Part shown: in pieces, positions 5,932-27,377 of the stretch
Position numbering within the stretch: position 1 is the first letter of the stretch
Layout: every line of letters starts with the position of its first letter
NCBI GenBank assembly: GCA_963721805.1
Contig: CAVRJY010000001.1
Location: forward strand, 1,376,001 to 1,440,000
Origin: Nitrospirota bacterium
GTDB lineage: Bacteria > Nitrospirota > Thermodesulfovibrionia > Thermodesulfovibrionales > JdFR-86
Direction of reading: 5' to 3'
Length of the DNA: 64,000 nt
The notes under the pieces: generated by a model
The model's input: only the letters and a program-made list of their open reading frames with translations
Databases searched by the model: none
What the model was told of the DNA's origin: nothing
Program-made: the position numbers and the translations under genes

Positions 5932-6567
5932 ATGAAAGACCTCCGGATATTGTATGAGAAGCTCTATTCGGCCTTCGGGCCGCAGCACTGGTGGCCGGGG
6001 GATACGCCGTTTGAGATAGCGGTCGGCGCGGTGCTCACCCAAAACACGAACTGGGGCAATGTCGAGCGCGCGATAGCCAACCTGAAAGCAGCCAGAGCGT
6101 TGAGCGCCCGCCGCATCCATGCGATGCCGAACGCCGAACTTGCGGAGCTCATCCGGCCTTCCGGATACTTTAACGTCAAATCCAGTAGGCTCAAGGCTCT
6201 CATCGGATACCTGATCGAGCGCCGGGGAGGGAGCATGGCCCGCATGGCACGCGCCCCGATGTACGAACTCCGGCGCGAGCTCCTGGGCGTAAACGGGGTG
6301 GGGCAGGAGACTGCCGACTCTATCCTTCTCTATGCGCTTAACAAGCCCGTATTCGTGATCGACGCTTACACCAAGCGCGCGCTTTCGAGGCATGGCGTAA
6401 TGGACATTGGCGAGTCATACGAGAGGTTTCAGAAGCTATTTCATAGCTCGCTCAGCCCGGACGTGGCGCTCTATAACGAATATCACGCCCTGTTCGTCGC
6501 TCTCGGCAAGACTCGCTGCAGGCCGACAAAGCCTATGTGCGAGGGCTGCCCGCTTCAGGGGTTCTGA
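5932..6567 (+). CDS. Endonuclease III-related HhH-GPD DNA glycosylase
   Basis: GAVLTQNTNW, HhH GVGQETADSILLYA, VIDAYT, and C-terminal C-x6-C-x2-C. Confidence 0.88.
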   Translation: MKDLRILYEKLYSAFGPQHWWPGDTPFEIAVGAVLTQNTNWGNVERAIANLKAARALSARRIHAMPNAELAELIRPSGYFNVKSSRLKALIGYLIERRGGSMARMARAPMYELRRELLGVNGVGQETADSILLYALNKPVFVIDAYTKRALSRHGVMDIGESYERFQKLFHSSLSPDVALYNEYHALFVALGKTRCRPTKPMCEGCPLQGF

Positions 6568-6573
6568 TATAAT
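6565..6573 (+). promoter_or_regulatory. Extended -10 promoter (TGaTATAAT) for the sugar cluster; probably a leaderless transcript
   Basis: Perfect TGn-TATAAT ending 7 nt before ATG 6581; no Shine-Dalgarno sequence. Confidence 0.6.
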
Positions 6574-6580
6574 GTCCACG

Positions 6581-7531
6581 ATGGACGAGCTATTTGACAG
6601 GTCACGTCTCGAGATCAGGCCGCTTGGCGAGCGCATTCACGACCTGGGCCTGACCTCGTTGATGCCGCTTGCCAGCCGCAACTGGAGCCACCCGTCCATA
6701 GATACCGTTGCCCGGCGCATAAAGGACGCGAAGGGCGAGCGAGTCATGATGATGGGCGGCCACGTAATACGCTCCGGGGCGCAAAGGTTCCTGATCGACC
6801 TCATGGAGCGCGGCCATATCACCTGCATCGCGATGAACGGATCATGCGTGATCCATGACTTCGAATTCGCGCTGATCGGGGCGACGACAGAGAGCGTTGC
6901 AAGGTACATCTCAGAGGGCCGCTTCGGGCTATGGCGCGAGACAGGCCGGATAAACGACATAATCAACGAGGCATACAAAGATGGCGGCGATATCGGCATC
7001 GGATCTGCCGTCGGACGCGCGATACTAAAAGGAGACTTCCCCCACAAGGACATAAGCGTGCTCGCGGCCGCAAGCCGCCTGGGGATTCCGGCCACGGTGC
7101 ATGTCGGAATCGGCCACGATATCATCCACGAACTCCCTAACTGCAGCGGCGCGGCCACAGGAGAGCTCTCATACCGCGATTTCCTGCGCTTTACGCGCAT
7201 GATAGAAGGGCTCGAAGGCGGCGTGGTCATGAACTTCGGAAGCGCGGTCATGGCCCCTGAGGTCTACCTCAAGGCGTTAAGCATGGCCAGAAACGTGGCC
7301 CACCAGGAGGGCAGGGCGATCCGCAGGTTCACGACGCTCGTCTGCGACTTACAGCCCCTTCCCGAGGACCTGAGCCGCGAGCCAGAGAAGACGTGTGCGT
7401 CATATTACTTCAGGCCCCTGAAGACTATGCTCCTGCGCACAGTGGCCGACGGCGGCGAGGGCTTCTACGTGCGCGCCTCTCATGCCGACACGATTCCCGC
7501 GCTCTGGCGGGCCGTGGTGGAGTCAGCATGA
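6581..7531 (+). CDS. Deoxyhypusine-synthase-fold protein (GSU2086-like); start 6581, alternatively 6572
   Basis: MMGGHVIRSG, AMNGSCVIHDFE, FGLWRETG, PATVHVGIGHDIIH, NFGSAVMAPEVYLKALSMARN. Confidence 0.7.
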   Translation: MDELFDRSRLEIRPLGERIHDLGLTSLMPLASRNWSHPSIDTVARRIKDAKGERVMMMGGHVIRSGAQRFLIDLMERGHITCIAMNGSCVIHDFEFALIGATTESVARYISEGRFGLWRETGRINDIINEAYKDGGDIGIGSAVGRAILKGDFPHKDISVLAAASRLGIPATVHVGIGHDIIHELPNCSGAATGELSYRDFLRFTRMIEGLEGGVVMNFGSAVMAPEVYLKALSMARNVAHQEGRAIRRFTTLVCDLQPLPEDLSREPEKTCASYYFRPLKTMLLRTVADGGEGFYVRASHADTIPALWRAVVESA

Positions 7532-8013
7532 AGATAATGGAGCTTAACGCCCTGGCCATGAAGGTCGCCGAGCTTAAGGCACAGGGGAAGAAGATCGTGC
7601 TTTGCCACGGCTGCTTCGACCTGATGCACCCGGGGCATATAAGGTATTTTCAGGCCGCCAAGCGGATGGGCGACGTGCTGGTCGTGACCGTCTCGCCCGA
7701 CCGCTATGTGGACAAGGGTCCGGGCCGGCCGGCCTTTAACGAGACCCTGCGCGTTGAATCCATCGCCGCGCTTGAGTGCGTGGACTTCGTGGCCATAAAC
7801 CTCTGGCCCACCGCCGCGGAGACGTTGAGGCTGCTCCGGCCGGACTATTACGTCAAGGGGCAGGAGTTCGAAAACCTCGAGGACAAGACAGGCAAGATAC
7901 AGCGCGAGGCCGAGGTCGTCAGAGAGATCGGCGCGGAACTGAGATTTACGCACGAGATCGTGTTTTCCTCGACCGACCTCCTTAACCGATACTTCCGCGG
8001 CACGGGAAAATAG
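7528..8013 (+). CDS. Stand-alone cytidylyl/adenylyltransferase (RfaE/HldE domain II-like)
   Basis: HGCFDLMHPGH (intact HxGH), KGPGRP, YYVKGQEF, FSST; ATGA overlap with the upstream gene. Confidence 0.88.
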   Translation: MKIMELNALAMKVAELKAQGKKIVLCHGCFDLMHPGHIRYFQAAKRMGDVLVVTVSPDRYVDKGPGRPAFNETLRVESIAALECVDFVAINLWPTAAETLRLLRPDYYVKGQEFENLEDKTGKIQREAEVVREIGAELRFTHEIVFSSTDLLNRYFRGTGK

Positions 8014-8038
8014 CCCTGCCAAAGGGTTATTATATTAA

Positions 8039-9562
8039 ATGGGTGAAAATCTCAAGATAATCGCATTTGAAGATGCGGTCACGAAGTGCGCTGCGCTCAA
8101 GTCCGCGGGAAAGACCGTGGTCCTCAGTATCGGCGTATACGACCTGATACACCCAGGCATCATTAACCACGTCTCAGCCGCCAAAAAACAGGGCGATGTC
8201 CTAATTGTCGGCGTCTTGAAGGATCGCTTCGCCAAGATCGGCCCCGGCCGCCCTGTATTCCCCGAAGAATACCGCCTGACGAACGCCGCGGCCCTCAGCG
8301 ACGTGGATTACGCATGCCTGATCGAAAACAACACCCCTTATGAGGCTGTCCACAAGATCCGCCCTAGCGTGTTCGCAAAGGGCGCTGTCGAGCGCGAGCA
8401 CGACATGCTCGTTTACGGCCGCGAGATCGACCGCGAACGGCACGAGTTCGGGGACATACGTCTCGCGGAGACCGACGGTTTCGCGTTTTCGTCCTCGCAC
8501 ATCATAAACAAGCTCCTCGATATCTATCCAGAGCAGACAGCCGCGTATCTTAAGGGCTTCGCCTCGCGCCACGAGTTCGCTGAGATAGCCGAACGCGTCC
8601 ATTCTCTCAAGGACATGAAGGTCCTCCTGATCGGCGATGGGATCATAGACGAGTATCACTATTGCGAGAGCATGAACAAGTCTGCCAAGACCCCGCTGGT
8701 CGTCAACCGCTACCTTTACCACGAGGCCTTCCCCGGCGGTGCGTTCGCGGTCGCGAACCACCTCTCCGGCATATGCGGCGAGGTCCGCCTCGTAAGCCTG
8801 CTTGGCCGCGAGGACTCGCGCGAGGACTACATCCTACACCACCTGAGGCCCAATGTGAGCGCCAAGTTCTTCCTGCGCGAGCACGGCCCGACTATCGTCA
8901 AGAAGCGCTACATCAACGAGGCCCTCAACTGGAAGCTCTTCGAGGTCAACTACATTAACAACGAATACGTGAGCGAACGCGAGGAGGCCGAGATCATCGC
9001 CTACCTTGAGCGCATCATCGGCTCCTACGACCTCGTGATAATCTCAGACTTCGGCCACGGGTTCATCTCGACCCGCATCATGCGCGAAATAGAGAAGCGT
9101 GCGCGCATGCTCGCGATCAACACCCAGACCAACGCGGCCAACGCCGGGTATAACCTTATCACCAAGTACCGAAAGCCGAATTTCGTATGCCTCGACGAGT
9201 CCGAGATCAGGCTCGCATGCCAGGAGCGTTACGATGGGATAGAGAAGATTGCGCGCCGGATGCGCGAGATCATAAGCGCCGACCACCTTATCACGACGCT
9301 CGGCTCGCATGGCTCGATAAGCGTCTCAAAAGACGGGACGGTCACGCTAACCCCGGTTTTCTCGACCAAGGTCATCGATACCATCGGGGCCGGGGACGCT
9401 TTTTTCGCATTTACCGCTCCGTGCCATGCCCGGGGATTCCCGCCGGAACTGGTCTCGTTCATCGGCAACGCTGCCGGGGCGCTCGCGGTGCAGATCGTAG
9501 GCAACTCGCGGCCCGTAGAACGTTACGAACTCCTGGAGTTCATCTACACGATACTTAAATGA
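8039..9562 (+). CDS. Fusion of a nucleotidyltransferase-like domain and a PfkB-family sugar kinase (HldE-like, reversed domain order)
   Basis: N-terminal GVYDLIHPGI...GPGRP...FSSS; C-terminal IGDGIIDEY, PGGA, SDFGHG and the PfkB signature DTIGAGDAF. Confidence 0.85.
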   Translation: MGENLKIIAFEDAVTKCAALKSAGKTVVLSIGVYDLIHPGIINHVSAAKKQGDVLIVGVLKDRFAKIGPGRPVFPEEYRLTNAAALSDVDYACLIENNTPYEAVHKIRPSVFAKGAVEREHDMLVYGREIDRERHEFGDIRLAETDGFAFSSSHIINKLLDIYPEQTAAYLKGFASRHEFAEIAERVHSLKDMKVLLIGDGIIDEYHYCESMNKSAKTPLVVNRYLYHEAFPGGAFAVANHLSGICGEVRLVSLLGREDSREDYILHHLRPNVSAKFFLREHGPTIVKKRYINEALNWKLFEVNYINNEYVSEREEAEIIAYLERIIGSYDLVIISDFGHGFISTRIMREIEKRARMLAINTQTNAANAGYNLITKYRKPNFVCLDESEIRLACQERYDGIEKIARRMREIISADHLITTLGSHGSISVSKDGTVTLTPVFSTKVIDTIGAGDAFFAFTAPCHARGFPPELVSFIGNAAGALAVQIVGNSRPVERYELLEFIYTILK

Positions 9563-10629
9563 GCGACCGCTACGGTATCGACAGCCACAAGCTCATGTAC
9601 CACCCCAAGCGCGTGAGCGAATGGCTTGCGGGTGCGCTCGTATACCCCATCTACATGGAGCTGTCACCCTCCGGGGTCTGCAACCACCGCTGCGAGTTCT
9701 GCGGCCTAGATTTCATGGAATACCAGAGCCGTTATCTCGACACAAATGTGCTAAAGGAACGCCTGATCGAGATGGGTTCTCTGGGCGTCAGGGCCATTAT
9801 GTTCGGCGGCGAGGGCGAGCCCTTCATGCACCGAGACATGGCCGGGCTGATCCTCCACACAAAAGCATCGGGAATCGATGTCGCTATGACCACAAATGGC
9901 GTGCTCTTTACCCCCCAGCGCTCAGAGCCCACGCTTGGCGCACTGGAATGGTTAAAGGTGAGTATCGCGGCAGGGACTGCGGATACATACGCCCGGCTGC
10001 ATAACACAAAGGCGGCTGACTTCGACCGTGTGATCGAGAACATGGAGCACGCAGCGCGTTTCAAGGCCGCCAATGGGCTTAATTGCACGCTAGGGATGCA
10101 GATGCTCCTGTTGCCGGACAACCAGGCCGAGGCCGCAGCGCTCGCGCGCATCGCCCGCAAGATAGGAATGGATTACCTCGTTATAAAGCCTTACTCACAG
10201 CACCCGCAGAGCAAGACCCGCCAGTACAGCGAGATCAGCTATCAGGATGCCGAGCTGCTGGCCTCGGAGCTTGCGGAGTTTAATAGCGAGACCTTCAGCG
10301 TGATCTTTCGCGCTCGCGCGATGGCAAAATGGGACGACTCCTCGCGGCCGTACGGCCGGTGCCTCGCGCTCCCGTTTTGGTCCTATATAGACGCGGGGGG
10401 CAACGTCTGGGGCTGTAGCGTCTATCTCCGCGACGAGAGGTTCCTATATGGCAATATCTACGAAAATACGTTTAAGGAGATCTGGGAGGGCCCGCGAAGG
10501 CTCAAGTCACTCCTTTGGGTCGAGCAGGAGATGGACGCACGGGGCTGCAGGGTCAACTGCCGGATGGACGAGATCAACCGCTACCTATGGGGCCTGAGAC
10601 GTCCGCCCGAACATGTCAACTTCATATGA
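9559..10629 (+). CDS. Radical SAM enzyme with a C-terminal twitch/SPASM-like Cys domain (paralog 1)
   Basis: CNHRCEFC, GGEGEP, C-terminal CLALPF...GNVWGC...GNIYENTFKEIW...CRVNC. Confidence 0.9.
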   Translation: MSDRYGIDSHKLMYHPKRVSEWLAGALVYPIYMELSPSGVCNHRCEFCGLDFMEYQSRYLDTNVLKERLIEMGSLGVRAIMFGGEGEPFMHRDMAGLILHTKASGIDVAMTTNGVLFTPQRSEPTLGALEWLKVSIAAGTADTYARLHNTKAADFDRVIENMEHAARFKAANGLNCTLGMQMLLLPDNQAEAAALARIARKIGMDYLVIKPYSQHPQSKTRQYSEISYQDAELLASELAEFNSETFSVIFRARAMAKWDDSSRPYGRCLALPFWSYIDAGGNVWGCSVYLRDERFLYGNIYENTFKEIWEGPRRLKSLLWVEQEMDARGCRVNCRMDEINRYLWGLRRPPEHVNFI

Positions 10630-10724
10630 GCTATCCATCGCCGTTGAAGGTGAAGGAGCACGACCTATCCTTCGTTAGGTCAGCCGATGAAATGGCAATA
10701 AGGCTTGTGAATAATGGGCAATAA
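10626..10724 (+). CDS. Possible 32-aa mini-ORF or gene remnant (MSYPSPLKVKEHDLSFVRSADEMAIRLVNNGQ)
   Basis: ATG overlaps the radical SAM stop (ATGA); its stop lies 11 nt inside the transketolase start, so it spans the gap exactly. Confidence 0.3.
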   Translation: MSYPSPLKVKEHDLSFVRSADEMAIRLVNNGQ

Positions 10725-11547
10725 GCATAGCGAACTCGAGCGCATGGCCGAAGCGGTCAGGCGTGACGTACTGCAGATCGCCTGCAGCGCCCGGAGCGCG
10801 CACGTGGGCTCATCGCTTTCATGCGTCGATCTCGTCGTGGCGCTATATTTCGACGAGATGCGCATTGATAAGCACGACTGGGCAAACCGCGACATCTTCA
10901 TCATGAGCAAGGGCCATGCCGCAATGGCGCTATACAGCACATTAACCGCACGCGGGCTCATGAGCCGAAAGACCCTGCTTGGCTACATGAAAGACAATGG
11001 CACCCTTCCCGCGCATCTCGACCGCTTCACTGCCAGGGGCATCGAGGTCTCGGCGGGCTCGCTCGGCCACGGCATCTGTATCGGGGCAGGGATGGCGCAC
11101 GCCTTAAAGCTCCGCGGACAAAACCCGGAACAGACGCGCCGCGTCTTCGTGCTGATCGGCGATGGCGAGAGTGAGGAGGGCTCGGTGTGGGAGACAGCGC
11201 TTTTCGCATCGAAGCTCAAGCTAGACAACCTTACAGTGCTTGTGGACTACAATAACCTGCAGGGGTACGGCCGGCCCCGCGAGCTTTGCTCATACGAGCC
11301 GGTCGAGGACAAGTGGCGCGCCTTCGGCTGGGAGGCGGTGCGGGCCGACGGCCATGACTTCCCCTCGATCCGCCGCGCGCTTCGGTTTCCCCACAGCGGC
11401 AGGCCCAAGGTCATCGTAGCCGATACGACAAAGGGCAAGGGCGTCCCGTTTATGGAGGACGAGATGAAGTGGCACTACTTCATCGTAACGGACGAGCTGA
11501 GGGAAGAGGCCATGGCCCACCTGTGCAGGTTTAATAATGCGAAATAG
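10714..11547 (+). CDS. Transketolase N-terminal (ThDP-binding) subunit
   Basis: HVGSSLS, SKGHAA, GSLGHG, GDGE...N ThDP motif, DGHD, TTKGKG. Confidence 0.92.
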   Translation: MGNKHSELERMAEAVRRDVLQIACSARSAHVGSSLSCVDLVVALYFDEMRIDKHDWANRDIFIMSKGHAAMALYSTLTARGLMSRKTLLGYMKDNGTLPAHLDRFTARGIEVSAGSLGHGICIGAGMAHALKLRGQNPEQTRRVFVLIGDGESEEGSVWETALFASKLKLDNLTVLVDYNNLQGYGRPRELCSYEPVEDKWRAFGWEAVRADGHDFPSIRRALRFPHSGRPKVIVADTTKGKGVPFMEDEMKWHYFIVTDELREEAMAHLCRFNNAK

Positions 11548-12442
11548 CGTAATCAACGCGATAACCGCACGCGCACGCAGGGACAAGCGCATATTCCTGA
11601 TAACCGGCGACGCCGGTTACGGGGTGCTCGACGAATTCAAGACATTATTCCCCGGCCGTTTCCTGAACCTCGGCGTGGCCGAGCAAAACATGATCGGTTT
11701 CGCCGCGGGGCTATCGCTGAGCGGCTACAAGGTCTTCGTCTATAACATCGTGCCTTTCGTCCTGTATCGCTGCTATGAGCAGGTCCGAAACGACATATGC
11801 TACCAGGCGCTCCCCGTGACGCTAATAGGCATAGGAAGCGGGGTCACGTACTCACCGCAGGGCATGACTCATTATTCGGTCGAAGACATCGCGATAGCGC
11901 GCACGATGCCCAACCTCACGGTCCTTTCACCAGCGGACCCGCTTGAGGCCATTGCGGCGGCCGGTCACGCGATTAAGAGCAAGGCCCCGGTCTACATCCG
12001 CATCGCCAAGAGCGGCGAGCCGTCCATCCATAACTCTCCGGTCAAGGACGTCACGAAGCCGATTAAGGTCGCAGACGGCGAGGGCGTGGCCGTGATGTTT
12101 CATGGTTCGGTGAGCACGGAGGTCCTGACCGCCCTTGAGGGCATTAAGCGCCAGCCGCTGGTGCTTTCCGTGCCGATGCTCCAGCCAATGGACTTCAGAT
12201 CCCTGGCCCGGGCGCTTAAGGGCATACACACGGTTATCACTGTGGAGGAGCACTTCCGCGAGGGCGGACTCGGATCGATCCTCGCCGAGTGGATAGTGCG
12301 CGACGGTCTCCCGATACGGCTACGCAAACTCGGCATAAATAACGAGGTCATCCACGCCATTCGCAACAACGCAGGAATGCGCGAGCAGTATGGATTTTCC
12401 TCGGGAGCGATAAGGTCGGCGGTGGCCGAGGCCTACAAATGA
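11537..12442 (+). CDS. Transketolase C-terminal subunit
   Basis: NLGVAEQNMIG, YEQVRND, GMTH, VYIR, TVEEH...GGLGS. Confidence 0.92.
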   Translation: MRNSVINAITARARRDKRIFLITGDAGYGVLDEFKTLFPGRFLNLGVAEQNMIGFAAGLSLSGYKVFVYNIVPFVLYRCYEQVRNDICYQALPVTLIGIGSGVTYSPQGMTHYSVEDIAIARTMPNLTVLSPADPLEAIAAAGHAIKSKAPVYIRIAKSGEPSIHNSPVKDVTKPIKVADGEGVAVMFHGSVSTEVLTALEGIKRQPLVLSVPMLQPMDFRSLARALKGIHTVITVEEHFREGGLGSILAEWIVRDGLPIRLRKLGINNEVIHAIRNNAGMREQYGFSSGAIRSAVAEAYK

Positions 12443-13545
12443 GCGGCGCGATAATCCTCGACGGCCATAAGCTCGCGTGGCACCGCGACCGCATCGAGGC
12501 ATGGCTGCGCGGAGAGCGCATCGCGCCTATCACGATAGACATGGCCCTGACCAGAAAGTGCGGCTACAGCTGCGTCTACTGCTACGGACAGCTCCAGCAA
12601 AACGACGAAAAACTGATGACCCGCGAGGTGATCTTCCGCTTCCTCGACGACGCGGCCGAGATCGGGGTCAAGGCGATAAGCCTCGTCTCGGACGGCGAGA
12701 GCACATGCTCGCCTCATCTCTATGATGCGATCCTGCGGGGCCGCGCCAACGGGCTGGACATGGCGTTAGGGACGAACGGATACCTGCTGGACGACGCTCG
12801 GCTGCCCGAGATCCTCCCGGCGCTTACATACCTGAGGTTCAACATTTCGGCTGCCGACCCGAAGCGCTACGCCGAGATCCACGGCTGCGCCGAGAAGTGC
12901 TACCACAAGGTGATCGGCACTATAAGAAAATGCGTCGAGCTGAAACGCGTGAAATGCCACGACGTGACGCTAGGGCTGCAGATGGTGCTCATGCCGGAGT
13001 TCAAGGACCAGATCATCCCGCTTGCGGCCCTGGGCCGGGAACTCGGGGTGGACTACCTCGTTATCAAGCACTGTAGCGACGACGAGCACGGCTCGCTCGG
13101 AGTGGACTACGAAAAATATAACACTCTGGTCGGGCTCCTGAAGGAGGCCGAGGGCTATTCAACAGGCAGCTACATGGTGCGCGCCAAGTGGTCCAAGATC
13201 CTTTCGGGCGGCAAACGCGCATACTCCCGTTGCTATGGTCCCCCGTTTATTATGCAGCTCTCGGGCTCAGGGCTCGTGGCCCCATGCGGGATGCTCTTTA
13301 ACGATAAGTACAAGAAATACCATATCGGCAACATAGCCGAGACCTCGTTTAAGGAGCTCTGGCAGTCAGAGCGCTACTGGGAGGTTATCAGGCTGATATC
13401 AGGCGGCCAATTCGACGCGCGCACGATGTGCGGCTCGCTCTGCCTGCAGCACAAGGTCAACGAGTGCCTGTGGGATATCAAGCAAAATGGCGCCGCTTTG
13501 CCGGCTGCCGAGGGCGAGCCTCCGATCCATTTAAATTTCATATGA
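12439..13545 (+). CDS. Radical SAM enzyme with a C-terminal twitch/SPASM-like Cys domain (paralog 2)
   Basis: CGYSCVYC, SDGES, C-terminal CYGPPF...GLVAPC...GNIAETSFKELW...CGSLC. Confidence 0.9.
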   Translation: MSGAIILDGHKLAWHRDRIEAWLRGERIAPITIDMALTRKCGYSCVYCYGQLQQNDEKLMTREVIFRFLDDAAEIGVKAISLVSDGESTCSPHLYDAILRGRANGLDMALGTNGYLLDDARLPEILPALTYLRFNISAADPKRYAEIHGCAEKCYHKVIGTIRKCVELKRVKCHDVTLGLQMVLMPEFKDQIIPLAALGRELGVDYLVIKHCSDDEHGSLGVDYEKYNTLVGLLKEAEGYSTGSYMVRAKWSKILSGGKRAYSRCYGPPFIMQLSGSGLVAPCGMLFNDKYKKYHIGNIAETSFKELWQSERYWEVIRLISGGQFDARTMCGSLCLQHKVNECLWDIKQNGAALPAAEGEPPIHLNFI

Positions 13546-13604
13546 CACCCGCACCGATATCCGTTATAATATCCCAACTCGATTAAACCTTCAGGAGGAC
13601 AGAA

Positions 13605-17635: not shown

Positions 17636-18139
17636 CTACCTTCCTGCGATATACGCGAGGTAGCTCCGAAACTCGTGTTTGAAGTTGTCGCTTAGAGTCT
17701 CGCCATCGAGCGTCGCCTCGATCTCGGCGACATCCCAAAATCTCACCTCGTCGATCTCCTCAGCGCTAAAGTTAAACGGGCCCTCGCGGGTGCAGCGGTA
17801 TGTGCTTACGAGTTCGGTCTCATAGCGGTTCGAATGGACGTAAGAATAGATAAACTCCGGCTCGCATGCGACGCCGAGTTCCTCGCTCATTTCTCTGAGC
17901 GCGGCCTCGATCACTTCCTCGCCGGGGTCCACGTGGCCGCCTACAGAGGTGTCCCACCGGCCCGGCGCGACGTCCTTGCTCATAGAGCGGCGCTGGAGCA
18001 GTATCCGGCCGGCCTTGTCCAGCACGAGCACGTGCGCCACGCGGTGCATGAGCGTGGGGTTTCCGTGCACGACAGAGCGCGGGGCTATGCCGATGACCTC
18101 GCTCTTATCGTTGACTATCTCGATCCGCTCCACTGACAT
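17636..18139 (-). CDS. NUDIX hydrolase (YfcD/IPP-isomerase-like)
   Basis: GGHVDPGE...AALREMSEELG Nudix box; HRVAHV; QRRS. Confidence 0.88.
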   Translation of the reverse strand: MSVERIEIVNDKSEVIGIAPRSVVHGNPTLMHRVAHVLVLDKAGRILLQRRSMSKDVAPGRWDTSVGGHVDPGEEVIEAALREMSEELGVACEPEFIYSYVHSNRYETELVSTYRCTREGPFNFSAEEIDEVRFWDVAEIEATLDGETLSDNFKHEFRSYLAYIAGR

Positions 18140-18201
18140 GATGCTTATTATACCCCATCGCATTTTGACAATGGCGGACCGGAGCGGTTAGTGTACATGC
18201 C

Positions 18202-24206: not shown

Positions 24207-25208
24207 TCAAAGTCTGGCCTGCACGGCGGCATAAACCTCATCGACCGTGACGGCCCGCATGCACTGGAGTTCCGGGCAGTAGTCCTTCTTGCGGCATGGC
24301 GAGCATGAGAGGGCCTTGTGCAAAACGGTGTGCCCCGGCCCGTAAGGCCCTGTCCTGGCCGGGTCGGTCGGCCCGAATATCGCGATGACCGGCACGCCGA
24401 GCCCGGCCGCGATATGCATCGCGCCCGTGTCGTTCGTCACAACGAATTTCGCGCCGCCCAGCACGCTTGCGAGTTCCTTAAGCGACGTCTTTCCGGTAAG
24501 CGATTCCGCGCGGCCCTCGGAGTACCTGACCACCTTATCCGCGATCCAAGCATCCGCCTCCGAGCCGACGACGTAGGAATGGATCGGGAGCATCGAGGCC
24601 AGCACACCGAACCTTTCGGCCGGCCAGCGCTTGGTCTGCCACCTGGCGCCCGGCACGAGCACCGCGTACGGTCCCTCGCGGTCGAGCAGGTATGGTTCCT
24701 TGAGGATAGGGAATGCCACGGGGGAATCGGCGCACCCCAGGAACCGCGCGACGTCGAGGTATCGGTCGACCGCGTGGACCGCGCCGGAGGACGGGGCCTC
24801 ATGGGTATAAAAAAGCCAGCTTGCCTCGCGCGCGTCGCTCAACCCGATGCGCAGCTTCGCACCCGAGAGCCAGGTGATCACGCCGCTTCTAAAAAGTCCC
24901 TGGATGTCGAGAGTTAGGGCGTACCCGCGTGCTTTCATCGCGCGCGAGATCGTGCGCAGTTCCGAGAGCATCTCTCCGGCCGAGCCGATGCGCTTCCACC
25001 GGTCCTTGTCGATGATCCAGAGGCGGGTGATCATCGGATGCTCCACGAGCAGGCCTTCGAGGCCGCGTGCGATGACCCAGTCGATCTCGGCCTCGGGGAA
25101 GCATTCCTTAAGGCGGGCCAGGAGCGCAAGGCCGTGCACGACATCGCCGAGCGAACTCGGTTTTACGATGAGGATGCGTTTCGGCCTGCGTCCCTCGAGT
25201 ATGTCCAC
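24207..25208 (-). CDS. GT9 LPS heptosyltransferase (WaaC-like)
   Basis: KPSSLGDVVH, DIQGLFRS, KRWP, NDTGAMHIA, FGPT. Confidence 0.88.
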   Translation of the reverse strand: MDILEGRRPKRILIVKPSSLGDVVHGLALLARLKECFPEAEIDWVIARGLEGLLVEHPMITRLWIIDKDRWKRIGSAGEMLSELRTISRAMKARGYALTLDIQGLFRSGVITWLSGAKLRIGLSDAREASWLFYTHEAPSSGAVHAVDRYLDVARFLGCADSPVAFPILKEPYLLDREGPYAVLVPGARWQTKRWPAERFGVLASMLPIHSYVVGSEADAWIADKVVRYSEGRAESLTGKTSLKELASVLGGAKFVVTNDTGAMHIAAGLGVPVIAIFGPTDPARTGPYGPGHTVLHKALSCSPCRKKDYCPELQCMRAVTVDEVYAAVQARL

Positions 25209-25865: not shown

Positions 25866-27377
25866 TTATACCTCAGAGAGAATAAGCTTTACAGCCTCAT
25901 CGAGGCTGGGCACTACATAGTCGGCGTGAGCCGATTCGGCCTGTTTTCCGGTCTGCACCAGCACAGAGCGCGCACCGACCGCGCGTGCCAGGAGCATGTC
26001 CGCGTCCTTATCCCCCACTACCCATGAGCCGCGCAGGTCGATATTGTGCTCCGCGCGGGCCTGAAGCAGCATGCCGGGCGAGGGTTTTCTGCACTCGCAG
26101 CCGTCCTCCGGCCCGTGGGGGCAATAATAAAACGCCTCGAACCCACGGTTGTCAATGAAGTGGCGGTTCACCCCGCAAGTGAATGTCTCGTCCACTAGCC
26201 CGCGCGCGATGCCGGACTGGTTCGAGACCCCGACGAGCATGTAGCCGGCCTCGCGTAGGCGGTTTAGCGATGCTACGTCGTCGAACTCTCGGAAGTCCTG
26301 CCACGAGTTCAGGAAATGAGCGTCCAGGCAAAGAGTGCCGTCGCGGTCGAAAAACACGGCCTTCCTCTCGGGCAACAGCGAACCTATCGCATTAAGCACA
26401 GCCTCCGGGCTGATGGATTCCATGCACTCGATGCGGTCTTTCGGGCAGGTGCGCTTAAAGCACGGCGCACACACCGTCTTGGTGCGCAGCACGATGTTGC
26501 CCCTGCGGTCGAGCGGGCCGGTAAGCTCGGGGTCGGTCGAGCCGAATATCCCGATAAGCGGGGTGCGCACCGCATAGCCGATGTGCATCGGGCCCGAGTC
26601 GTTCGATACGAGCACGTCGCATGCGGCTATCAGCGCCATGAGTTCGCGCACGGTAGTCATGCCCGCAAGCGGCATCAGGCGGCCGGAGGGGACCGAGGCG
26701 GAGCTTACGATCTCCGAGGCGATGGTCGCCTCCGCCGGCCCTCCGAATACCAGTACGCTTCCGCCTAGTTTATTGATAACGCCTTCGGCCACGCGGCTGA
26801 ACCTCGCGGCCGGCCAGTGCTTGGCGCTCCCGAACGCTGCGCCGGGATTGAGTCCCACGACAGGCCGGGGCAGGTGCCCGATCATCTTGATCGCGGCCTG
26901 TCGCTCATCGACAGTTAGGTCGAGCCAGGGCTCCGGTCTAAGCTCCGGGCGCTCTGACTTGATCCCCGCGACCTCGAGCATCTTCAGGTAATAGTCGATA
27001 TGGTGCATCAGGCGGTCGTCGTTGTCATATGCTACGGCCTCCGTAAGCAGCAGTCCCCGTCCGTCGCGGCCGTACCCGATGCGGTTTGGGATGCGGCTAA
27101 GCCACGCGATCAATGCCGCGCCGAACGCGTTTTGAAGCAGGATGGCATGAGTGAAATTCTTTCTTCGCAGTTCGCGGGCAGTGGCGATGATGCCTTTGTT
27201 CAGGACGATGACCTCGTCGATATAACATGCCTTCTCAAACAGCGGTGCGATCACAGGCTTGACGAGGAGCGATATCCGGGCGCCTGGATATGCACGGCGG
27301 ATCGATCGCAGCGCGGGGATGGTCATCACCGCGTCTCCGATCCAGTTTACGCCCCTTATTAATATCCGCTCGGACAT
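25866..27377 (-). CDS. waaF: Heptosyltransferase II (WaaF) fused to heptose-1,7-bisphosphate phosphatase (GmhB)
   Basis: N-terminal NWIGDAVM, NPGAAFGSAKHW, NDSGPMH; C-terminal HAD motifs FFDRDGTL, SNQSGIARG, CPH...CECRKPSPGM, VGDK..D. Confidence 0.9.
   Translation of the reverse strand: MSERILIRGVNWIGDAVMTIPALRSIRRAYPGARISLLVKPVIAPLFEKACYIDEVIVLNKGIIATARELRRKNFTHAILLQNAFGAALIAWLSRIPNRIGYGRDGRGLLLTEAVAYDNDDRLMHHIDYYLKMLEVAGIKSERPELRPEPWLDLTVDERQAAIKMIGHLPRPVVGLNPGAAFGSAKHWPAARFSRVAEGVINKLGGSVLVFGGPAEATIASEIVSSASVPSGRLMPLAGMTTVRELMALIAACDVLVSNDSGPMHIGYAVRTPLIGIFGSTDPELTGPLDRRGNIVLRTKTVCAPCFKRTCPKDRIECMESISPEAVLNAIGSLLPERKAVFFDRDGTLCLDAHFLNSWQDFREFDDVASLNRLREAGYMLVGVSNQSGIARGLVDETFTCGVNRHFIDNRGFEAFYYCPHGPEDGCECRKPSPGMLLQARAEHNIDLRGSWVVGDKDADMLLARAVGARSVLVQTGKQAESAHADYVVPSLDEAVKLILSEV

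Follow-up and report, generated by a model that had tools for sequence, protein, structure and literature searches.

What product would be made by an operon that combines sugar-activating enzymes of the heptose type with two radical S-adenosylmethionine (SAM) enzymes and a transketolase split into two subunits? This question is raised by a locus at positions 6581-13545 of a 64,000-nucleotide stretch of a Nitrospirota bacterium genome (GenBank assembly GCA_963721805.1, contig CAVRJY010000001.1, positions 1,376,001 to 1,440,000 of the forward strand), referred to here as the window. Seven co-oriented, tightly packed open reading frames (ORFs), designated A to G, fill this span on the plus strand (Table 1). 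A/B, C/D and F/G overlap by 4 nt (ATGA at 7528, 9559 and 12439) and E/F by 11 nt, so that the mostly overlapping gene order described in an earlier note on this DNA was borne out by the ORF coordinates. The Pfam and NCBIfam content also matched the domains named there, which were a deoxyhypusine synthase (DHS)-fold protein, a PfkB kinase, two radical SAM enzymes and a split transketolase. We read the locus as a self-contained accessory operon whose product would be a modified nucleotide sugar of the heptose type, used in a surface glycan, with a probability of roughly 0.55. Gene content, folds, synteny and phyletic patterns are what was observed, and every chemical step given below is inferred from them.

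A search with A gave 163 relatives, of which 80 loci were kept. The carriers belong to the Nitrospirota, including magnetotactic members, the Thermodesulfobacteriota/'Deltaproteobacteria', anammox and other Planctomycetota, Omnitrophota, candidate-phyla bacteria, Nitrospinota, Magnetococcales and Methanoperedens archaea. Presence was counted by tblastn in the 53 loci with at least 8 kb downstream, with D orthologues taken at 45% identity or more and G orthologues at 60% or more. B and C were found in 49/53 loci, a GmhA-like SIS gene in 40/53, D orthologues in 27/53, the transketolase pair in 22-23/53, G orthologues in 15/53 and a GmhB-like HAD gene in 8/53. The earlier note had taken these genes for one pathway, and they do co-occur widely, B and C standing beside A in nearly all loci. 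Two architectures were distinguished. Type 1 (38 loci) has A, B and C in the order found in the window, and in type 2 (11 loci) a single fusion of a nucleotidyltransferase (NT) with PfkB lies ahead of A, which is the hldE-GSU2086-gmhA arrangement of Geobacter. Two longer orders recurred, 'A B C [sis] D (TK pair or E1 alpha/beta) [GT2] G' and 'A B C sis (D or SDR) TK pair methyltransferase' (TK, transketolase; SDR, short-chain dehydrogenase/reductase); these strings are approximate, since in GC-rich loci the ORF picking assigned some genes to the incorrect strand. The SIS genes of the clusters matched gmhA best, below its curated cut-off, and in one archaeal locus the cassette is joined by a transaldolase and a HAD phosphatase. 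The window copy is an ordinary member of a widespread, conserved and biochemically unexplored cassette.

The textbook heptose pathway rests on four enzyme families. The operon has in common with this GmhA/HldE/GmhB/HldD pathway a PfkB-type anomeric kinase and an HxGH NT, and the GmhA-like genes of the related loci add to the likeness. B matched PF01467 (E 3e-14) and scored 102.4 bits with TIGR02199 (rfaE_dom_II; equivalog cut-off 181.5). Its HPGH motif keeps the HxGH signature intact, and its orthologues in the 49 loci are 55-82% identical. In C, the NT-like domain (residues about 18-160) precedes PfkB (about 187-500), the reverse of the order in E. coli HldE. The kinase scored 128.3 bits with TIGR02198 (rfaE_dom_I) over residues 188-500, below the cut-off of 345, and this was still its best-scoring kinase family. 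The N-terminal domain reached 74.8 bits with TIGR02199, again under 181.5, and carries HPGI in place of HxGH. With the HldE model NF008454, C scored 148 bits against a cut-off of 521, and the kinase-N/adenylyltransferase-C order required for this family is absent. The HldE logic proposed for kinase plus NT therefore stood in that the rfaE domains were the best matches, but every equivalog cut-off was missed. Of the two nucleotidyltransferase domains described in the earlier note, the one in B keeps HxGH and the kinase-fused one is degenerate.

The same division of the two NT domains was seen elsewhere. Among 65 fused NT domains in related loci, 48 have HPG[ILMV], 14 retain the type 2 signature HIGH and 3 have another intact form, whereas all stand-alone copies (55/55) keep HxGH. 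These sequence counts suggest a duplication at the origin of type 1, after which B became the catalytic copy. NTP-promiscuous HENases have been reported to be marked by an (F/L)XXGRSTT 'STTR5' motif (PMC11573728). In an alignment made by eye, B reads EIVFSSTD and C reads FAFSSSH at this place, without the Arg, and the motif is absent from both. Compared with the textbook pathway, the operon thus has a reversed domain order, a degenerate fused NT and a separate NT gene; it has the DHS-fold protein A but no SDR of the HldD type, and it adds radical SAM and thiamine diphosphate (ThDP) enzymes.

The genome has further heptose genes outside the operon. An HldE is encoded at C1:484591-486063, with 501 bits, slightly under the NF008454 cut-off of 521, and with both domain models over theirs. 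A gmhA gene over its cut-off lies on contig 2. A cluster resembling that for GDP-D-glycero-alpha-D-manno-heptose (G000:C1:1152000-1158800) encodes an SDR, an NT-GmhB fusion, an HddA-like GHMP kinase and a SIS protein; a methyltransferase-tetratricopeptide repeat (TPR) protein and a sulfotransferase follow it. Judged by these sequence matches, the genome has three predicted heptose-type activation lines. HldE, gmhA and the GDP-heptose-like cluster being encoded elsewhere, the operon would be an extra, specialised line and not one for ordinary ADP-heptose.

It is barely plausible, on this evidence, that the operon is a redundant copy making only ordinary ADP-heptose for the core of lipopolysaccharide (LPS). 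B and C are HldE-like, and GT9 heptosyltransferases lie 11-14 kb away. The GT9 genes and the GmhB that the earlier note had placed at 24-27 kb are real (Table 1), and the genome has two GmhB-like domains, one of them fused to the window's GT9. However, besides the canonical HldE and gmhA, two radical SAM enzymes and a ThDP enzyme would be superfluous for ADP-heptose synthesis, and G is patchy, orthologues with at least 71% identity being present in 5/100 other genomes of the same order and in 1/9 of the family. Open frames of about 570-620 amino acids (aa) with a GmhB-like match, similar to the GT9-HAD fusion, were common in the sample of the phylum.

A belongs to the GSU2086 family (NF052581, 358.2 bits over residues 5-310; cut-off 250). 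It is not a member of the deoxyhypusine synthase family PF01916, with which it scored 16.3 bits over residues 39-101 only, under the gathering threshold of 27. Its ArgZ-C match was weak and sub-threshold, and a sequence comparison with PDB chains gave chance-level matches only (E 0.03 or higher). The AlphaFold2 (AF2) model of A, built with 30 homologues, had a pLDDT of 91.9. The best Foldseek matches of this model were ArgZ/AgrE C-domains, an LOR/SDH protein and deoxyhypusine synthases (E 5e-9 to 1e-6; template modelling (TM) score about 0.5), confirming the DHS-like fold that had been proposed. DHS and the ornithine cyclodeaminase-type DHS-fold enzymes have the fold and an N-terminal glycine-rich strand-helix region in common with A. 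They differ in that identity is 10-17%, and A stands among heptose genes rather than with eIF5A, in a cluster without polyamine genes. A second family member is encoded at G000:C1:724234-725196 (437.9 bits, 44% identical to A), and on sequence A appears as the diverged second copy of the GSU2086 family in this genome. The neighbours of the other copy are a 479-aa spermidine-synthase-like gene, small proteins without a family and PIMT, which give no functional clue.

In E. coli-type pathways the SDR enzyme HldD epimerises the heptose. HldD was not found in the window's genome, where the best score was 108.6 bits against the TIGR02197 cut-off of 274.6. A is not an SDR and does not belong to TIGR02197, so any likeness to HldD is one of functional analogy only. 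We examined the distribution of both families in 301 sampled genomes from the phylum of the window, counting NF052581 (A) and TIGR02197 (HldD) matches over cut-off. The A family was present in 240 genomes, usually as one copy of about 440 bits, and HldD in 36. A alone was found in 236 genomes, HldD alone in 32, both in 4 (G106, G136, G273 and G258) and neither in 29. The two also divide by taxonomic family: A was absent from families f5 (0/12) and f28 (0/13), where HldD occurs in 11/12 and 12/13 genomes, while families f23 and f27 have A in 50/54 and 57/60 and HldD in 0/54 and 4/60. A heptose adenylyltransferase over cut-off was present in 252/301 genomes and GmhB-like genes (E up to 1e-30) in 267/301, each of them both in A-type and in HldD-type families.

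A is also physically linked to heptose genes. Among the listed matches (150 per search, paired by eye), at least 40 genomes have an A-family gene and an adenylyltransferase within 11 kb on one contig. Six regions were fetched from such genomes and four were scanned. Each of the four has a gmhA-like gene (189-206 bits) directly adjoining or overlapping the GSU2086-family gene (437-449 bits), and a monodomain heptose adenylyltransferase (196-211 bits) lies 0.2-3.2 kb away. In a Geobacter Tn-seq study, mutants in hldE, GSU2086 and gmhA have one phenotype in common (PMC5585712). Phyletic complementarity, gmhA adjacency and the Geobacter phenotype together fit the replacement of HldD by a non-orthologous DHS-fold enzyme of the NAD type. 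That A is a DHS-fold NAD(P)-type heptose epimerase or oxidoreductase standing in for HldD is accordingly a tentative assignment, to which we give slightly less than even odds. The absence of an SDR epimerase pointed out in the earlier note holds within the cluster, but it is probably no gap, since A is distributed as a likely stand-in for HldD. Two other roles of A were rejected. Replacement of GmhB is contradicted by the GmhB-like genes that co-occur with A, are present in A-positive and A-negative families alike and number two in the window genome. Replacement of GmhA is contradicted by the gmhA-like genes that adjoin A.

The remaining genes may modify the sugar after activation. D and G both matched the Radical_SAM and SPASM Pfam models and contain the CX3CX2C motif (CNHRCEFC in D, CGYSCVYC in G). 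In 28 sequences (21 D-type and 7 G-type), C41, C45, C48, C268, C286, C330 and C334 were invariant. Only four C-terminal Cys are therefore invariant, and the seven-cysteine SPASM motif is lacking although the Pfam SPASM model matches. Four such residues fit a single auxiliary cluster, the 'twitch' type of radical SAM enzyme named in the earlier note. The D and G families both end in H-x-N-F-I. Among PDB sequences, D matched DesII and BlsE (E about 1e-7). Its AF2 model had a pLDDT of 92.5, and the top Foldseek match was DesII (8hzv, E 1e-16, TMq 0.67-0.69), followed by SuiB, SkfB and BlsE (7vob, TMt 0.71); BtrN was only at rank 27. DesII and BlsE, the best PDB sequence matches of D, both act on nucleotide-linked sugars. 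They differ from D in that identity is 17-19% and the conserved H-x-N-F-I tail is a feature of D, which is also shorter than DesII. With the DesII model TIGR04426 (cut-off 450), D scored 45.8 bits and G 23.2 bits, and with the BlsE model D scored 37 bits against 400. D is thus DesII-like by its modelled fold and not a member of the DesII family.

For G, no PDB sequence relative was found at E values up to 0.001. Its orthologues are 72-78% identical across phyla, and from its sequence distribution the G module appears as a patchy accessory that is yet highly similar across phyla. In the ESM Atlas, two of the three clusters nearest to G were 78-84% viral (Uroviricota) among the members of known taxonomy, which hints that phages may carry relatives of G. 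The Atlas look-ups otherwise returned family labels only.

E and F together contain all three transketolase Pfam domains. With NF004559 (cut-off 488), E scored 234.7 bits and F 129.4 bits, and under-scoring is expected for halves. F also resembles DXS (109 bits). The gene slots around this pair were compared among related loci. In loci without D, an extended SDR occupies the slot of D ahead of the ThDP enzyme. Six such SDRs were scanned, and their best matches, at 103-117 bits and under the cut-offs, were GalE or 4,6-dehydratase models. Three ThDP families alternate in the slot that follows, namely the split transketolase, an E1 alpha/beta pair or an acetolactate-synthase (ALS)/YerE-type enzyme. 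The last was represented by an 858-aa protein of a Scalindua locus (L014), where it replaces the transketolase pair. No comparative argument for carbonyl formation by D, followed by attack of a ThDP enzyme as in branched-chain sugar routes, is stronger than this alternation of SDR with D and of the ThDP families. The suggestion that radical chemistry replaces an SDR step thus gained comparative support from the slot in which SDR and D alternate, as well as from DesII as the nearest fold of D.

Branched-chain deoxysugar routes with ThDP enzymes include YerE in yersiniose A and the E1-like AviB1/AviB2 in avilamycin. As in the related loci, the ThDP enzyme of these routes comes after a ketone-forming enzyme in a nucleotide-sugar cluster. 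The analogy with YerE drawn earlier is strengthened by the YerE/ALS-type enzyme of L014. The present operon differs from these routes in its split transketolase, its heptose-type sugar and the radical SAM enzyme proposed instead of a 4,6-dehydratase.

The transketolase pair could also be read in two ways that involve no branching of a nucleotide sugar. Transketolase makes sedoheptulose 7-phosphate, and radical SAM sugar epimerases and dehydratases exist. E/F might accordingly boost the supply of sedoheptulose 7-phosphate, with D and G epimerising, deoxygenating or oxidising a nucleotide heptose that has no C-C branch, and the transaldolase beside the cassette in one related locus would suit this. 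We consider it unlikely. E1- and ALS-type enzymes cannot supply sedoheptulose phosphate, which speaks against a mere supply role of E/F; the E1 alpha/beta pair is present in many loci and the YerE/ALS type in one. The ThDP genes come after D or the SDR and not before the isomerase, and the genome has a separate transketolase-like locus (C1:1351649-1353232). In the second reading, the chain would be extended before activation, as in the lincomycin octose route. Transketolase would form an eight-carbon ketose phosphate, which would then be isomerised, phosphorylated and nucleotidylated to an NDP-octose. The divergence of the activation enzymes and cluster SIS proteins from the heptose equivalogs would fit a substrate of another size. 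This reading is nevertheless very unlikely. The E1- or ALS-type substitutes would give 1-deoxy or acyloin products unusable by a GmhA-type isomerase, and type 2 and core loci have the same A, kinase and NT genes without any ThDP enzyme.

As for the destination of the sugar, the cassette is surrounded in other genomes by genes for GT2, a flippase, a PMT_2-type GT-C after G, NeuB, a CMP-transferase, aminotransferases, methyltransferases and B12-radical SAM proteins. Such glycan-type surroundings point to a surface glycan. The product could instead be a small molecule, that is, a natural-product glycoside or a cofactor-like metabolite. The window copy has no glycosyltransferase or flippase, and ADP-heptose is known to feed natural products such as septacidin (PMC11573728). 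We regard this as quite unlikely, because elsewhere the cassette lies within glycan loci with GT2, flippase, GT-C, NeuB and CMP-transferase genes, and no non-ribosomal peptide synthetase, polyketide synthase or aglycone genes were found in the 12 loci scanned against Pfam.

Two local contexts were also observed. In several Nitrospirota loci (L012:18815-20665, L023:18643-20496 and equivalents), G is followed by a gene for a membrane protein, about 616 aa long, that matches PMT_2 (GT-C) weakly, and upstream of A lie genes for large TPR proteins, a pseudopilin-like gene and one for a LuxE-like acyl-protein synthetase. This context suggests protein or envelope glycosylation via a lipid-linked sugar. 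At L019:7932-10022, L029:7980-10022 and L008:8107-9987, a NeuB-type synthase and a CMP-transferase(-HAD) lie directly upstream of A, and it is possible that in these organisms a heptose derivative is condensed with phosphoenolpyruvate into a higher ulosonic acid.

For the operon as a glycan-directed nucleotide-sugar line, we propose the following pathway. Module 1 (A, B and C) would duplicate, in diverged form, the line that activates nucleotide-heptose. In C, the PfkB domain may phosphorylate C1 of heptose 7-phosphate, supplied by the GmhA encoded elsewhere in the genome, and a GmhB-type phosphatase, also encoded elsewhere, would take off the 7-phosphate. B, as the sole domain with an intact HxGH, would form the NDP-heptose, with the HPGI domain of C probably acting as its non-catalytic partner. 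A would epimerise the heptose by oxidising and re-reducing it in an NAD(P)-dependent manner, the job of HldD in E. coli-type pathways. Module 2 (D, E/F and G) would tailor the sugar. D may introduce a carbonyl on the nucleotide sugar (keto or otherwise activated), which the extended SDR would do in other loci. The split transketolase E/F could then add a two-carbon unit to this carbonyl, giving a C-branched or extended sugar, and G may perform a further radical step such as an epimerisation, dehydration or rearrangement. A bolder combined proposal is that the GSU2086 family is an unrecognised DHS-fold NAD(P)-dependent heptose epimerase that takes the place of HldD across most Nitrospirota as well as many other anaerobes and archaea, and that the operon's diverged copy feeds a new pathway (keto-NDP-heptose by D, two-carbon branch by transketolase, finishing by G) to an undescribed branched higher-carbon sugar. 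In its entirety this is doubtful.

Several observations weigh against the proposed operon function. All cluster enzymes score under the curated cut-offs of the heptose equivalogs, and the sugar could therefore be another ketose-derived phosphate. The transketolase could simply supply sedoheptulose 7-phosphate. The operon copy in the window has no internal glycosyltransferase, gmhA or gmhB. The core A copy of the window genome is not beside gmhA, unlike those of the four scanned genomes, and one genome (G334) has HldD and the cassette together. The phyletic counts use related genomes, which are not independent. In a second phylum (that of locus L067), HldD was over cut-off in 46/201 genomes. 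A was tested there in 30/201 genomes, the first 15 listed of each HldD class, and was over cut-off in 5 of the HldD-positive and 11 of the HldD-negative ones. The direction was the same as in the 301 genomes, with a much weaker contrast.

Table 1. Operon genes A to G and other features of the window (positions within the 64,000-nucleotide stretch)
Feature	Coordinates	Strand	Basis
A, GSU2086-family protein, DHS-like Rossmann fold	6581-7531	+	NF052581, AF2, Foldseek
B, stand-alone heptose-1-phosphate nucleotidyltransferase-like, HPGH intact	7528-8013	+	PF01467, TIGR02199
C, degenerate NT-like domain (HPGI) + PfkB kinase fusion	8039-9562	+	PF01467, PF00294, TIGR02198
D, radical SAM, one predicted auxiliary-cluster domain, DesII/BlsE-like	9559-10629	+	motif, PDB sequence matches, Foldseek
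E, transketolase N-terminal (ThDP-binding) subunit	10714-11547	+	PF00456 E 6e-36
F, transketolase C-terminal (pyrimidine-binding + C) subunit	11537-12442	+	PF02779 E 1e-29, PF02780 E 4e-9
G, second radical SAM enzyme, 28% paralogue of D	12439-13545	+	Radical_SAM + SPASM Pfam
HhH-GPD DNA glycosylase	5932-6567	+	
Secreted protein, 192 aa	13605-14183	+	
Short radical SAM ORF, 226 aa	16952-17632	+	
NUDIX hydrolase	17636-18163	-	
GT9	24207-25208		domain match
GT9-HAD (GmhB-like) fusion, 503 aa, HAD C-terminal	25866-27377	-	domain match

The operon is inserted among housekeeping genes, as had been noted. A co-oriented HhH-GPD DNA glycosylase gene lies upstream of A and is preceded by serS on the opposite strand. 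Downstream of G is a secreted-protein gene of no known family, with uvrA beyond it. The claim that the cluster has its own promoter was not supported. A sigma-70 scan found no site upstream of A, whose start is 2-14 nt past the glycosylase stop (6567), an alternative ATG being possible at 6569. Of the promoter-like sites in the region, the best (13542-13570, 11 of 12) precedes the secreted-protein gene, and another (10687-10715) lies ahead of E. The GC content of the cluster (57-62%) does not differ from that of the flanks. No glycosyltransferase, SDR or SIS/gmhA gene was found within 6581-13545, confirming the absence of these genes stated before. The secreted protein has an N-terminal hydrophobic signal-like segment; neither Pfam nor NCBIfam matched it, and the 80 related loci contain no homologue. 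Further downstream, uvrA overlaps at its end with a short radical SAM ORF, after which comes the NUDIX hydrolase gene; a NUDIX gene was also found inside the cassette at related locus L080.

Gram-negative envelopes have heptoses among their core building blocks, and ADP-heptose signals potently to innate immunity. The literature search, with subscription journals outside its coverage, found no functional study of GSU2086 and no characterised pathway with this gene set, in agreement with the earlier note, which knew of none combining all parts. The sole literature trace of GSU2086 found was the Geobacter Tn-seq table (PMC5585712). A commentary on heptose nucleotidyltransferases leaves the neighbourhoods of such genes explicitly unexplored (PMC11573728). 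New in this study are the adjacency of GSU2086-family genes to gmhA in the four scanned core heptose loci, the complementarity of A and HldD, the alternation of SDR and D and the alternation of ThDP families. If GSU2086 is the missing epimerase of bacteria without HldD, the annotation of the LPS core would change for whole phyla. The tailoring module, if it works as proposed, would place a DesII-like radical SAM enzyme and interchangeable thiamine enzymes on a heptose nucleotide, a new and oxygen-independent route to branched sugars. The presence of the cassette in anammox bacteria, magnetotactic Nitrospirota, candidate-phyla bacteria and Methanoperedens suggests that its product is probably a widespread but unseen surface sugar of anaerobes.

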